Positions 5,719-41,456 of a stretch of DNA of 64,000 bases are shown piece by piece (the first letter of the stretch is position 1; each line of letters starts with the position of its first letter). Under the pieces are notes generated by a model. That model did no database searches, had not been told where the DNA came from, and worked only from the letters and a program-made list of their open reading frames with translations. Origin of the DNA: Antedon mediterranea (lineage: Eukaryota > Animalia > Echinodermata); NCBI RefSeq assembly GCF_964355755.1, contig NC_092680.1, positions 12,967,045-13,031,044 of the forward strand. The letters run 5' to 3'. The position numbers and the translations under genes were made by a program.

Positions 5719-8700
5719 TTATACGGCTTCAATTTCTTCACCATAACCCTCATCCGAACCCGTAGTATGAGATCCAAAAGGCGAAATATTATTTAAGGGT
5801 TTTGGAGAATTATTCGACGCAGGACGATTTTGTTTAAAGCTATCTAGTTGTCTTTTTAGTTTCTTCATTTCAAGATGTTTTCTGTCTACCTGCGCGTATA
5901 CTGCATCGTTATCTGCAACTTCCGTGTTCTTGGCTACGTCTGCATCAGTACTGCTGAGTTTGTTGACAGGATCTTTTCTTGTTTCTGCAACTACGTCATC
6001 ACCACTGCCGAGTTTGTTGTCATGATCTTTTCTTGCAGCTACGTCACCATTGAGCTCTTCCATAGATTGGTACAACCCATCCGCTGAAATGTTATCCCCG
6101 ATCGCTATTTTCTTTAACTTTTCATTTACATCATCATCTTGACGCTCTTTTACGATTTTCAGCTCGATGTCTTTTGGTTCCCCAACTCCCTTTTTCTTCT
6201 TCAGTTTGCTAGAGTTTTTCTGCTTAGACTTATCAGCAGATTTCTTCACCTTTGAGTTTTTCTTGGATCCTTTATTTTTCTTGTCTTTACTTGATTTCTG
6301 GTTAAATCCAATCTCTACGTCATTATCATTATCATGAAGCACCTCTATAGAAACCATTCGATTGTTGCCTGCAGTCTCGTCTATGTCGTAGCCCCCAACA
6401 GCCCCTACATTCTCATCAGCATCTATAAACATCCCGTCATTACTATACCCACCGCTAACAGCGTTGATCATTTCAATTTCGTCTTTTTGTTCATGATATT
6501 TGAAATCATTAGATGTTGATGTGCCGTCTACTGCTGTGATCTCAATTACTCTGCCGCCATTTTCTCTATCCTTTCGTCTGTAACCATCCTGATCTGTACC
6601 AGGCATGCCAGAATCATGCGTGACGTAATCATTTGAATCCATATACATTGCACCCTGTGAGCTACTTCTACGCTTCTTATATCTGTGATAGAAAAACAAT
6701 TGTTTTGTTTCAAAATTGAAGTAGGTTCTTTTATTCCCAGAGACTTTATTTATTTAATATTATTGTTTGTATTAAAACAATTAATTATTATAAATTAATT
6801 GAATTGTTACTTCTCCAAATACTAATAATTGATATGTTGGAAAATATACCATGATAGTAAATAAAAATGTACTACTGTACTACAATACTATATTGCACTA
6901 ATTTATCCTATCAAGAACTACTCAATTATAACATATAACACATAATATAAGATGTACAATAGATAGACGTATAGAGTTAATCAAACTATTCCATTTTATA
7001 TATTTTATTTTTCGTGCTTTTTTGTGTTTAGTAGTATGTCAAACATCAAATTTCCATTTTTTATTTTTTTATGATATTGGAAAATACAAGTTTTTGAATT
7101 TTGAATTTTTTTAAAATTTTGAATCAACCTCCTTTGTATGGACCTGAAATTATCAGTGAATTTTGTGGTGTTAAGAAAAATAGGACACAAAGAATACGAA
7201 TATTTATAGTTGAGAGGTTTTCAAATGAACACAATTTAGAAAAATTAACTTGGCATAAAAATATGTGTTTATCTTCAAATGTTATCAATGAATACAGTAT
7301 GTGATATGGCGGGAATTATGTGACAGAATATGATTTACCTTCTTATAATAATGGAGAAGAGAATAATAGAAACAATAACCAGGAAGACCATCAAAGCAAC
7401 AGCGACAGAAAGAGAAACTACATCTGAAAAGAAGATATGGTTTGATAAAAAATCATTGATAACATATATTGAACATTCTAATTGCTGATTGTTATCATCG
7501 AGGTTACATCCCCTTTCTCTTCTTCGTTCACACTAACCTACTTCACCCTGCACTAACAACCGCCCCCTCCCCCCCCCCCCTCTACAAAACACACACACAT
7601 CACTTTTTATCTTGTCGGTTGCAGTTTTTTTAGCTTCTTACCAAGTTCACATTTCGCCGCCTCCTTTCCTGGTGCAGGAGTTGGTGTACTACATTCTACT
7701 CTGTTGTAGCCCGTATTACATGTCACTTCACCCTTACTATTTCTTTCTCCGTGTTTGACTTCTTCTGGACAATCATCTGAAGTAGAAGGAAGAAAATGCA
7801 AGTTTTTGTAAACATAGTTGCATGTATCTATATATAAATTATGGTTAATTCTGACATAGGCGAGCACAATGCAAAAACTTCGGTACAAATCTCCGCCTTG
7901 GATATACCTACCTTATCTATCTCAAAATGTACCGCGAAACGTAGATTTGATAACATTAGTTTTCACATCGACGCTATTGTTCCATATTTCTATCTTAGGA
8001 AGATATTATAAAGGGTTTTATAAGAAATTTTCTGATTTCAATCGGTAAATTTTAACTCTACGCGTGGTAGAAGTAATTTCCGGGTTCACGGAAGGTGTTG
8101 GTTTCAATCAGGGAGTTGTATACTAAGTTGGCCGTTGGTGCTTGGTGGCGATAGCCATTTTGTTTTTTTGTTTATTTTCGGACCGCGCGTTTGAAAGTAT
8201 AGTAGTACATAAAGATCACATTAAATACATTCATGAAACATAGGAGTAAATTGTGGGAAATAATTATATAAAATTACATTACATCAAGAGAATTGATGAT
8301 AATAGCTTTTGTTTTGAAATCGAATGAAACCCCGATAGCCGAGTTGTTGAGTAAGCTGCCAGGACTTTATGTATACTTGCGCTATCTGTGTCCCGTCAGG
8401 ACCCTGGGATACTTCTGCCTATGTTGCAAGCCGTCTAAACGTCTTCCTTCTTAGGCCACTGTGTCGCGGAATAATGTATTCATTATACCAATTAGGATGG
8501 TATTTATTTGAATAAACGCCCGGAACACCTCCCCAGTAAAACTTCAATTAAAATAATTATCTCGCTACTCACCCCCCCCCCACCCCCAAATACATCTAAT
8601 AAACGCCCATCCACATTTCTACACACAATATTGCATTATATTTATAACACAATTATACTATTTTTAGTAGATTTCTTCGGACTGTTATCTACAATTTACC

Positions 8701-39900: not shown

Positions 39901-41456
39901 GAGAAGTTGTATAAAACACTACAGATTGCCGATCTACACAGTGATAGAATTGTCAATATTTTAGTATTGCTTTTTTGTTTGTTTCTGTACATTGTTTAGG
40001 CCAACACATAAAGATGATTGGTGTCTGCACTGAAACGTCAACAAAAGGAAATTTATTGAGCTATCTGTGCTCATTTGAAGATGCAACCAGTGATGTTAAA
40101 CCAAAATCCAAGGAGTTGATAAACTATTTTTTACAGATAGCCAATGCAATGCAGTTTCTACACATAAACGAGGTAATACAATAATTCTTGTTTCATTACG
40201 CTATTCAGGCTGGCAGTGGTTGGTTGCCATCATTAAAATTGTCTTATAGATAGTTAATCTTTGGCGGATAACCCATTGTGATTGTCAGGATCCTTTTTTT
40301 TTTGTTCCTTGTTTCTTTCTTTTCACGATTTTTGTTTCAGGTGTATTTCTAATTCTTACCAGAGCCAGTAGCGTTCTATGATGATTGTTTTTTCCATTGC
40401 AGAGAGTCTGTCCGATGCTTTGTTGTCAGTTGATTATGCTGTTTAGTGACAATATTGTAAAAATCCCTGTGCTTGGCTTGAAATATATCAATAATGAGAA
40501 CGCGGATCTCTATCGAATTGTAAGCTAATTTATTTATATACATGAACCTGCATGAAACTGTGCCTAAAATCTTTTAACTTAACATAATATGTCTGTTTTC
40601 ATTACTCATAACAAATAAAGACGGTGGCTACAAAAAATGTTAATGCTTTTTTAGGGAGAAGACAGAAGTTTACAGTTGAGATGGATGTCACCTGAAGCAA
40701 TTAAATATAGCATTGCAACAAAGGAAAGCGACGTGTGGACTTTTGGAATCGTCCTCTATGAAATTGTAACATTTGGTAAGAACCGATTTTAGAAAATTTC
40801 TCACTAAAATTTTATTCTTATTCCTATAATATATTATACACGAGGATGGGGTCGTCATGATTATTTCAGTCATTATTTTTTGTACAATTATTTACAATCC
40901 TGTGTAGATGAGAGAACACTTTTTTTTTATCGAGGGAAAACCAGTAAATTGAAATTCGAAAATCATGTAAAGAATATAAACATTTGTTTTTAGGTGATGC
41001 TCCATATGCTGAAATAAAAGATGAAGATATAAGAACACATGTATCTGATGGAAACCGCATTCCGAAACCACGGTCTTGTAGCGATACACTGTAAGTCATT
41101 TTAAATTGTTTTTCCTCCAAAGTTGAAAGTTGTCGAAGTTCAAACAACCTTCTGATTGAATTTCATCATCAAGTTCAAACAATACTATATTATTGTATCT
41201 GTACAGGTATGTCCTTATGAAAAAATGTTGGAAGGAAACGCCATCGGAACGTCCATCTTTTGATGAGCTTGTTGGTGATTTGGAAAACATGAAACGTACC
41301 AATGTGAGTATGTAAATGAATGTATTACGTAATCATGATTGCTGAAATAAAACATAAGATAATGATAGTAGGCAATTTAATCTAGTTTTAGCTTATGTAA
41401 ATTTCAATATTCATTCATTCTCTTTATTTTAGATAAATATCCATAGTATATATTAA
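21961..41456 (+). CDS. Gene B: receptor tyrosine-kinase-like protein, SP-WSC-3xSushi/CCP-TM-pseudokinase-pseudokinase, ~970 aa, ~21 exons
   Basis: GT-AG exons joining in frame: 21961-22021 (SP); 30319-30669 ([42 protein letters not shown]); 31173-31574 (2 CCP); 31902-32078 (CCP); 32388-32509 (TM); 32824-32880. Kinase-like domain 1: 34488-34635, 34940-35050, 35662-35816, 36176-36292, 36608-36728, 37100-37196, 37634-37727. Kinase-like domain 2: 38070-38226, 39404-39514, 40000-40172, 40403-40519, 40655-40775, 40994-41090, 41207-41303. Last exon is 41433-41456 (INIHSIY*) or possibly 41699-41716; this choice is uncertain. Confidence 0.85.
23495..25740. mobile_element. Non-autonomous TIR element (~2.2 kb) in gene B intron 1
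   Basis: TIR ATATGTGTACAGCCACATCAAAACCAGGC ... GCCTGGTTTTGATGTGGCTGTACACATAT, with internal direct repeats at ~24157-24640. No clear TSD. Confidence 0.75.
26011..26218 (+). pseudogene. Orphan 5'-truncated copy of the gene B third-sushi exon plus downstream intron
   Basis: [36 protein letters not shown] nearly matches 31984-32078. The following GGTATCACATTTGTTAGGTCACAGGTCACC matches 32159-32188. Confidence 0.85.
27300..27470. mobile_element. hAT-type MITE, 171 bp
   Basis: CAGTGGCG...CGCCACTG termini with a perfect 8-bp TSD AGTATAAT on both sides. Confidence 0.85.
27874..28931. mobile_element. TIR element hosting a nested MITE
   Basis: TGAGGCC(A)nTTGTTTGTTTGCTGTCA ... TGACAGCAAACAAACTA(T)nGGCCTCA. 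Confidence 0.65.
27957..28734. mobile_element. Tc1/mariner (pogo-type) MITE
   Basis: TA|CCGTATATTTCGGTGTATAAGTCGCAC ... GTGCGATTATACACCGAAATATACGC|TA, with repeated TATAAGACGCACCC subterminal boxes. Confidence 0.8.
30917..31036 (+). mobile_element. Short DINE-1/HINE-like (Helentron-associated) element
   Basis: T-run, AGTCGCGTG..CGCGACT subterminal inverted repeat, (GTCG)n microsatellite, 3' GGCC..GGCC hairpin, then a T-run. Confidence 0.6.
33155..33935 (-). mobile_element. Longer member of the same DINE-1/HINE-like family
   Basis: Same ends as 30917-31036 in reverse orientation, with two (GACA/GACC)n tracts at ~33205-33275 and ~33856-33900. Confidence 0.65.
34488..37727 (+). CDS. Gene B pseudokinase domain 1 (7 exons)
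   Basis: Tyrosine-kinase motifs retained: [69 protein letters not shown]. Catalytic motifs lost: VAVK->AIAY, HRDLAARN->[11 protein letters not shown]->VIG. Confidence 0.85.
38070..41303 (+). CDS. Gene B pseudokinase domain 2 (7 exons)
   Basis: Retained: [69 protein letters not shown]. Lost: VAVK->ALGR, HRDLAARN->[11 protein letters not shown]->VLG. Confidence 0.85.
38236..39245. mobile_element. Cluster of ~4 PIF/Harbinger-like MITEs in one gene B intron
   Basis: Repeated GCTTGGTTCCCACTAG ... CTAGTGGGAACCA(A/C)GCT termini. The copy at 38615-38806 has TTA on both sides. Confidence 0.75.

Follow-up and report, generated by a model that had tools for sequence, protein, structure and literature searches.

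In Botryllus, the FF and FcoR genes lie head-to-head, are co-expressed, have been duplicated as pairs and carry tails with tyrosine motifs, and the core-2 motif of FcoR reads [A/D]VYxxV (PMC12582321). The head-to-head layout alone is common, because close divergent pairs (<1 kb) hold 8-18% of the genes in several eukaryotes and 28% in Drosophila (PMC3483549). HER3, the best-understood receptor pseudokinase, partners with an active receptor kinase (PMC13519141). Here we describe two divergent genes, A and B, in a window of 64,000 nucleotides of the crinoid Antedon mediterranea (contig NC_092680.1, positions 12,967,045 to 13,031,044, forward strand). Judged from sequence, the best reading is that B stands for a crinoid family of pseudokinase receptors that apparently has not been described before and that goes back to echinoderm WSC/sushi receptor tyrosine kinases (RTKs), and that its neighbour A is an older phosphotyrosine adaptor. 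A preliminary description of this DNA had proposed a co-regulated pair of sensor and signalling partner in innate immunity or self-recognition. On balance, we lean towards the view that the dead-kinase receptor B and the tyrosine protein A are separate signalling parts likely sharing a promoter, rather than an obligate pair, because no A-like neighbour could be found for B's relatives elsewhere. Nothing was found at the locus that ties either gene to immunity specifically, and no title or abstract beginning in the literature covered, outside which most subscription journals lie, describes gene A or gene B.

Gene B encodes a predicted receptor with two dead kinase domains

Gene models were made by joining exons by their coordinates on the sequence, which was read directly. 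Every intron of genes A and B has GT-AG borders and both reading frames are uninterrupted; both genes are real. Gene B lies on the plus strand and consists of 22 exons (21961..41456), which encode 1002 amino acids in the present model:

21961..22021, plus strand: exon 1, signal peptide
30319..30669, plus strand: exon 2, WSC domain with a cysteine-rich insertion (Pfam)
31173..32078, plus strand: exons 3-4, three sushi domains (Pfam)
32388..33073, plus strand: exons 5-7, transmembrane helix and juxtamembrane linker
34488..37727, plus strand: exons 8-14, pseudokinase domain 1 (Pfam, alignment, structure model)
38070..41303, plus strand: exons 15-21, pseudokinase domain 2 (Pfam, alignment)
41433..41456, plus strand: candidate last exon, the end point in the preliminary description; the NCBI model has another short exon near 41700

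The NCBI model (P0001) is identical to ours over the first 995 amino acids and then takes a different short last exon. The double-sushi exon of B is 100% identical to P0001, which is placed on a 22.27-Mb sequence of Antedon mediterranea. Protein B begins with a hydrophobic stretch of the signal type and has one transmembrane helix, and Pfam recognised WSC, Sushi and two PK_Tyr domains. When the two kinase domains were aligned with 12 reference kinases, neither had the glycine loop, the beta3 lysine, the HRD motif (which reads CPM) or the DFG motif (which reads VIG/VLG), and the catalytic aspartate, the catalytic-loop asparagine and the DFG aspartate were replaced in both. The motifs of the APE region and of the C-lobe were retained. 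In an AlphaFold model built on a 30-row alignment, domain 1 was confident and domain 2 moderate; the model is usable only for the transmembrane helix and the kinase domains, and a single-sequence fold reached a predicted local distance difference test value (pLDDT) of 35. The modelled domain 1 matched the kinases RET, FGFR and MerTK with a template-modelling score of about 0.8 by target.

Gene B is, as predicted from these features, a single-pass WSC/sushi receptor with two tyrosine-kinase folds that lack every catalytic motif, which bears out the earlier claim of a large ectodomain on dead kinase domains. Signal peptide, ectodomain, single transmembrane helix and tyrosine-kinase fold, together with the loss of the beta3 lysine, the HRD aspartate and the DFG aspartate, are the features of a receptor tyrosine pseudokinase. 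That the domains are active through a non-canonical site, so that B could phosphorylate the tail of A, is scarcely credible: the domains do retain an intact kinase fold with the motifs of the APE region and the C-lobe, and rare pseudokinases stay active through compensation (PMC13519141), but glycine loop, beta3 lysine, catalytic aspartate, catalytic-loop asparagine and DFG aspartate are all replaced, and in both domains.

B belongs to a crinoid family that shares its dead motifs

All four catalytic motifs are also lost in Antedon P0008 and Anneissia P0009, and the dead motifs are shared by Antedon P0127 as well. P0008 and P0127 have consecutive accessions (XP_071965946-949). A third Antedon paralogue, P0137, has an ectodomain and a transmembrane helix and no kinase. 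In a search of 1.84 billion representatives, from which the best 150 of 60,316 matches were considered, the dead family motif occurred in 4 of the 274 proteins fetched, all of them kinase-bearing crinoid proteins; a hidden Markov model (HMM) made from these 4 proteins showed a score gap among the 274 from about 500 to 178 bits. These results show a crinoid family of dead sushi-RTKs, in which B is the WSC-bearing, double-domain member. Orthologue-like members in two genera are 62% identical and have the same dead motifs, and because these motifs are kept in both genera, the B family itself is under selection.

Active receptors with WSC and/or sushi domains were found in Patiria and Strongylocentrotus, among them WSC-sushi-tyrosine kinase receptors with HRD and DFG in Patiria. 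Furthermore, the WSC domain of B is 38% identical (E 4e-20) to that of the active-kinase Patiria receptor P0221, including the cysteine-rich insertion. Because of these active receptors and this match, B is best read as a putative dead derivative of the echinoderm WSC/sushi RTK group. In trees, the two domains of B join each other (97/96) and group with Antedon P0008 and not with Anneissia P0009 (94/88; 85/90 in a smaller set). Domain 1 stands on a long branch, and the trees placed the B family, which has a long stem, within no RTK subfamily. B appears to be younger than A, although the tree is not decisive on this point. No Anneissia orthologue of B was found among proteins of at least 550 amino acids.

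The ectodomains of the family change faster than the kinase domains. P0008 and P0127 are 75% identical outside the cell and 98% identical in the kinase, which suggests either ectodomain diversification or kinase conversion. The cluster of P0008, P0127 and P0137 may be a better candidate for a recognition receptor than the A/B locus.

Between the two domains of B, the rate of synonymous change (dS) was about 0.50 and that of nonsynonymous change (dN) 0.36, as a rough estimate by the NG86 method on AT-rich DNA; on the same rough basis, dN/dS was about 0.7 overall, 0.84 in the N-terminal part and 0.58 in the C-lobe. These values bear on the alternative that B is a recently derived and weakly constrained duplicate, a decoy or a gene heading to loss, that only A is important and that their neighbourhood is a product of an unstable region rich in transposons. 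The overall and N-terminal ratios would suit it, as would the long branch of domain 1, the missing Anneissia orthologue and the nested long terminal repeat (LTR) and non-LTR elements that begin at 46.6 kb. We nevertheless consider it decidedly improbable: each of the 22 exons keeps the frame and has canonical splice sites, constraint is stronger in the C-lobe and the kinase fold is retained, and the same dead motifs recur in the orthologue-like proteins of the two genera.

Gene A encodes a membrane protein with conserved tail tyrosines

Gene A is encoded on the minus strand by four exons and comprises 419 amino acids:

12587..12662, minus strand: exon 1, signal peptide, in the complete gene copy; the NCBI model P0005 begins 69 bp farther upstream
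7642..7776, minus strand: exon 2, 44-residue four-cysteine ectodomain, weakly sushi-like
7339..7423, minus strand: exon 3, transmembrane helix without a charged residue
5719..6682, minus strand: exon 4, 320-residue tail with 10 tyrosines (YQSM, YAQV among their motifs), all retained in Anneissia

P0005 equals gene A with 23 extra N-terminal residues. Protein A also has a signal-type hydrophobic stretch at its N-terminus and one transmembrane helix. The ectodomain had no Pfam match at E<=1, and A as a whole matched no Pfam family. On a home-made sushi HMM the ectodomain scored 11.8 bits, and the best shuffle with fixed cysteines scored 8.3 (971 of 1000 shuffles scored). The match covers a stretch of 15 residues only; four cysteines and TCNTGY are present, their spacing is short and the sushi tryptophan is absent. 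Because the match is short, the tryptophan is absent and Pfam gave no match, the ectodomain can be called sushi-like only weakly. The earlier statement that both proteins are of type I with sushi ectodomains therefore stands as to the signal stretch and single transmembrane helix of each and as to the Pfam Sushi domains of B, and is too strong for A. Leads from the ESM Atlas were EGF/MEGF-like (0.77-0.86; EGF at 0.77 for the ectodomain), all below the acceptance bar.

A tiny ectodomain and a long tyrosine-bearing tail had been described for A, and this was confirmed, with 44 residues outside. The tail contains one YxxM motif (YQSM) and one YAQV, and a motif scan of the Antedon tail detected no strict immunoreceptor tyrosine-based inhibitory (ITIM), activation (ITAM or hemITAM) or switch (ITSM) motif. 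AVYAQV in A matches FcoR core-2, and its Anneissia counterpart SVYAQV fits a wide ITIM pattern. The only relative of A among 1,214 candidates, collected by a word-based search for proteins of 176-560 amino acids, was Anneissia P0006 (49% identity by BLASTP), the model of which is truncated at the N-terminus; A itself and P0006 were the only A-like proteins found. Between the two species, 10 of 10 tail tyrosines are identical, compared with 166 of the 322 residues of the whole tail (Fisher p 0.001, in a test that ignores that tyrosine is generally a conserved residue). Gene A thus appears, as far as sequence tells, to encode a crinoid membrane protein of no known family with strong selection on its tyrosines. 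Its short ectodomain, single transmembrane helix, several conserved tail tyrosines and lack of an enzyme domain fit the anatomy of a transmembrane phosphotyrosine adaptor as commonly defined.

Sequencing run X5, from another individual, could be compared with A over the tail only; in about 990 bp it differs by 6 substitutions and an in-frame deletion of 54 bp, and 2 of the 4 listed substitutions alter a residue. The deletion (5970-6023) drops one of two 18-residue repeat units, and Anneissia is also gapped there. The X5 contig, which by guess derives from RNA, covers the last exon of A, ends at the exon edge at 6682 and carries 60 further letters. As to splicing of A this is only a hint: the joint is not among the 15 of 135 joints shown, and X5 also covers intron.

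The shared 5' region has been duplicated in tandem

The following elements lie in and around the region between the two genes:

7492..22966, no strand: tandem duplication made up of two units, each about 7.74 kb long, with 3-bp microhomology at the junction (self-comparison, contig depth)
12663..14225, no strand: first copy of the intergenic region between the divergent start codons (1,564 bp from ATG to ATG)
14226..14286, plus strand: duplicate of exon 1 of gene B, either stranded or serving as an alternative first exon
15377..15511, minus strand: duplicate copy of gene A exon 2
20322..20397, minus strand: duplicate copy of gene A exon 1

The 7.7-kb duplication reported earlier was confirmed: the units 7492-15231 and 15229-22966 are 99.96% identical and differ by one mismatch and one 2-base indel. 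Each unit holds the first two exons of A, the intergenic region and the first exon of B, that is, 5' parts only and no whole pair; the transmembrane exon of A is single-copy and lies outside. The start codons had been said to diverge 1.56 kb apart. This is correct within each unit, where they are 1,564 bp apart (12662/14226 and 20397/21961), and does not apply to the complete genes: the complete A belongs to the first unit and the complete B to the second, so that 9,299 bp separate them in the assembly, and one copy of B exon 1 and one of A exons 1-2 are left stranded in between.

An assembly artefact was considered as the source of the duplication. Contig depth is expected to be 1x for an artefact and 2x for a fixed duplicate. 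Inside the duplication it was 1.53x that of the single-copy flanks in run X1 (5 vs 3 contigs) and 1.38x in run X3 (4 vs 3, one of them at the single-copy level), counted on 32 listed pieces out of about 11,100. Both runs come from a single sample, which may be the source of the assembly, and the depth serves as a hint only. This depth of about 1.4-1.5x exceeds the 1x of an artefact, and because it falls between 1x and 2x, a heterozygous duplication fits best. As far as this hint goes, the duplication looks heterozygous, and the duplication of the shared 5' region is likely recent and still segregating. An unduplicated haplotype would place A and B directly head-to-head.

Both copies of A exon 2 (15377-15511 and 7642-7776, minus strand) keep intact phase-1 splice sites, and the duplicated haplotype could therefore yield an A isoform with two ectodomain modules. 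In run X7, from a related organism, the A exons and B exon 1 were present on contigs too short for linkage.

Linkage of A-like and B-like genes elsewhere

Linkage was judged from the lengths of the carrier sequences and from accession numbers, not from DNA. The three Antedon paralogues of B (P0008, P0127 and P0137) are on a 41.38-Mb chromosome, and the A/B locus is on the 22.27-Mb chromosome. In Anneissia, A is on a scaffold of 700,243 bp and P0009, the only B-family protein found there, on one of 1,275,042 bp. The preliminary description had proposed checking whether A-like and B-like genes stay divergently linked in paralogues and relatives; the B paralogues on another chromosome and the separate Anneissia scaffolds speak against this, without amounting to a full refutation.

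We therefore regard as unlikely, if conceivable, an obligate and co-transcribed pair of the FF/FcoR kind, possibly young and formed in the Antedon line, in which B would sense a ligand and A would give the phosphotyrosine output via a third, cytoplasmic kinase. Such a pair would account for the head-to-head start codons 1,564 bp apart and the complementary anatomy of the two proteins, and it agrees with the core-2 match of AVYAQV, the fit of SVYAQV to the wide ITIM pattern and the local turnover (the duplication, an orphan half-exon and an exon-1 remnant). The split between 75% in ectodomains and 98% in kinases of P0008 and P0127 resembles the 37% vs 91% identity between regions of fester and uncle fester (PMC12582321), and A exons occur together with B exon 1 in the X7 organism. 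However, no A-like neighbour of the B paralogues was found, the Anneissia genes found sit on separate scaffolds, the duplication copies 5' exons only, and nothing like B exon 1 lies beside the A remnant. Ig domains (by Pfam), a multigene cluster of pairs and charged transmembrane residues are all absent. Moreover, A has a single core-2, whereas FcoR has core-2 in twos (PMC12582321), and A and B together hold no active kinase, whereas HER3 works with one (PMC13519141).

Several points weigh against separate parts and a late B. The gene model of A in Anneissia is incomplete at the 5' end, and diverged A-like partners of the B paralogues could escape a word-based, length-limited search. The layout itself recalls FF/FcoR, with two complementary single-pass proteins, cysteine-module exons of phase 1/1 and about 1.5 kb shared. 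The analysis identified no active kinase that could partner B. A B gene of Anneissia may be missing from the annotation, lie under the 550-residue limit or be hidden in a 50% cluster; an older B is not rejected by the tree (approximately unbiased test, p 0.055), the root of which rests on the long stem; and the dN/dS of about 0.7 between the B domains fits relaxed constraint. We also weighed a young co-regulated pair of feather stars: a WSC/sushi sensor that evolves fast and carries dead kinases in tandem would recruit the conserved ten-tyrosine adaptor. It would represent an independent, RTK-derived origin of paired recognition comparable to FF/FcoR, with a shared promoter still varying in copy number, and we hold it to be distinctly unlikely.

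Proposed function and history

If A and B are separate parts, B, itself without phosphorylating activity, would bind a ligand outside the cell and tune or scaffold an active kinase in trans, by the logic of HER3 and PTK7, or act as a decoy. The tail of A would be phosphorylated by a Src/Syk-type kinase or an active RTK. YQSM and YAQV are candidate SH2 docking motifs, and the phosphorylated tail may dock SH2 proteins at these two sites as transmembrane adaptors do. A would be the older gene; B probably originated from the dead-RTK family within the Antedon line, where its kinase domain was doubled and it became the upstream neighbour of A.

What stands firm is a crinoid family of sushi-RTKs, fully dead and apparently undescribed, that is retained across two genera. 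Its members include one with two pseudokinase domains, one without a kinase and a tandem pair in which near-identical kinases carry diverged ectodomains. The family is a compact case of RTKs losing catalysis while diversifying their sensing ends. If A and B did work as a pair, echinoderms would join the invertebrates in which paired-receptor systems have arisen convergently.

Neighbouring elements

Two further copies of gene parts lie in the window:

26011..26104, plus strand: orphan 3' half of a sushi exon, a partial copy of B exon 4, in B intron 1
46144..46405, plus strand: remnant of the A leader and exon 1, 69% identical, ATG deleted, without a B-like exon 1 alongside

The first had been called an orphan exon; a copy of a sushi exon is indeed there, truncated to the 3' half of the third sushi exon of B. 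The second had been called a pseudo-paralogue of gene A, and it is A-like, with leader and exon 1 as its whole content.

Three nested mobile elements occupy 46592-64000. The outer one is a Pao-type LTR element (LTRs 46592-47040 and 63552-64000, 99.6% identical) with minus-strand open reading frames (ORFs) that match Peptidase_A17. The inner LTR element (48852-49551 and 57725-58424, 99.1%) has a 5-bp target duplication and is broken by a non-LTR endonuclease/reverse transcriptase ORF at 53390-56722. Downstream of B, an inverted pair (42269-42663 and 44674-45105, 81% identical) is probably a transposon remnant. In B intron 1, 28947-29080 on the minus strand has a strong-looking splice donor near 28946 and no coding frame, and could be an antisense exon that does not code. 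At about 292-1231 on the plus strand, tail-to-tail with gene A, are exons of a small gene of the GST-C-like kind (Arc1p_N_like/GST_C matches), which presumably resembles EEF1E1/AIMP3.

Comparison with known systems

Plant paired NLRs are cytoplasmic NB-ARC/LRR proteins. The sensor/helper NLR pairs share the divergent gene layout with A and B and nothing else, and Pfam found no NB-ARC or LRR domain in the proteins of the A/B window. LAT, PAG, SIT and TRIM are transmembrane adaptor proteins with tyrosine-bearing tails. A resembles adaptors of this type in its tiny ectodomain, single transmembrane helix and long, low-structure tail with many conserved tyrosines, and differs from them in its four-cysteine module and in having no juxtamembrane cysteines; protein and Atlas searches found no sequence homology between them.

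Botryllus FF/FcoR shares with A and B the head-to-head genes for membrane proteins, a sushi domain and one partner's tail with tyrosine motifs. As described, FF/FcoR has no kinase fold, unlike B, and the likeness is an analogy only. The traits of FF/FcoR missing here are an FF-like partner with three transmembrane helices and a short tail, a family of pairs, copy-number change of whole pairs and a strict ITIM or hemITAM. In A and B, Pfam gave no Ig match and there is one transmembrane helix each; the Ig domains of FF were recognised by structure. The fester comparison drawn earlier is thus apt for how such a system works (head-to-head genes, tyrosine tails, core-2 match), while the linkage results mostly go against a pair.

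The receptor tyrosine pseudokinases (HER3/ErbB3, PTK7, RYK, ROR1/2, EphB6, EphA10 and STYK1) are, like B, type I proteins with a kinase fold without catalytic residues (PMC13519141). B differs from them in its other ectodomain, its tandem pseudokinase domains and its occurrence here in crinoids only, and in the same alignment its motif loss is far more complete than that of PTK7. The echinoderm WSC/sushi RTKs (Patiria miniata XP_038056137, automatically named 'angiopoietin-1 receptor-like', and XP_038065016; Strongylocentrotus XP_030830350, likewise with an automatic name) share with B a WSC and/or sushi ectodomain, a single transmembrane helix and a kinase fold like that of RET and FGFR. They keep HRD and DFG in one kinase domain, whereas B combines three sushi domains with two dead kinase domains.

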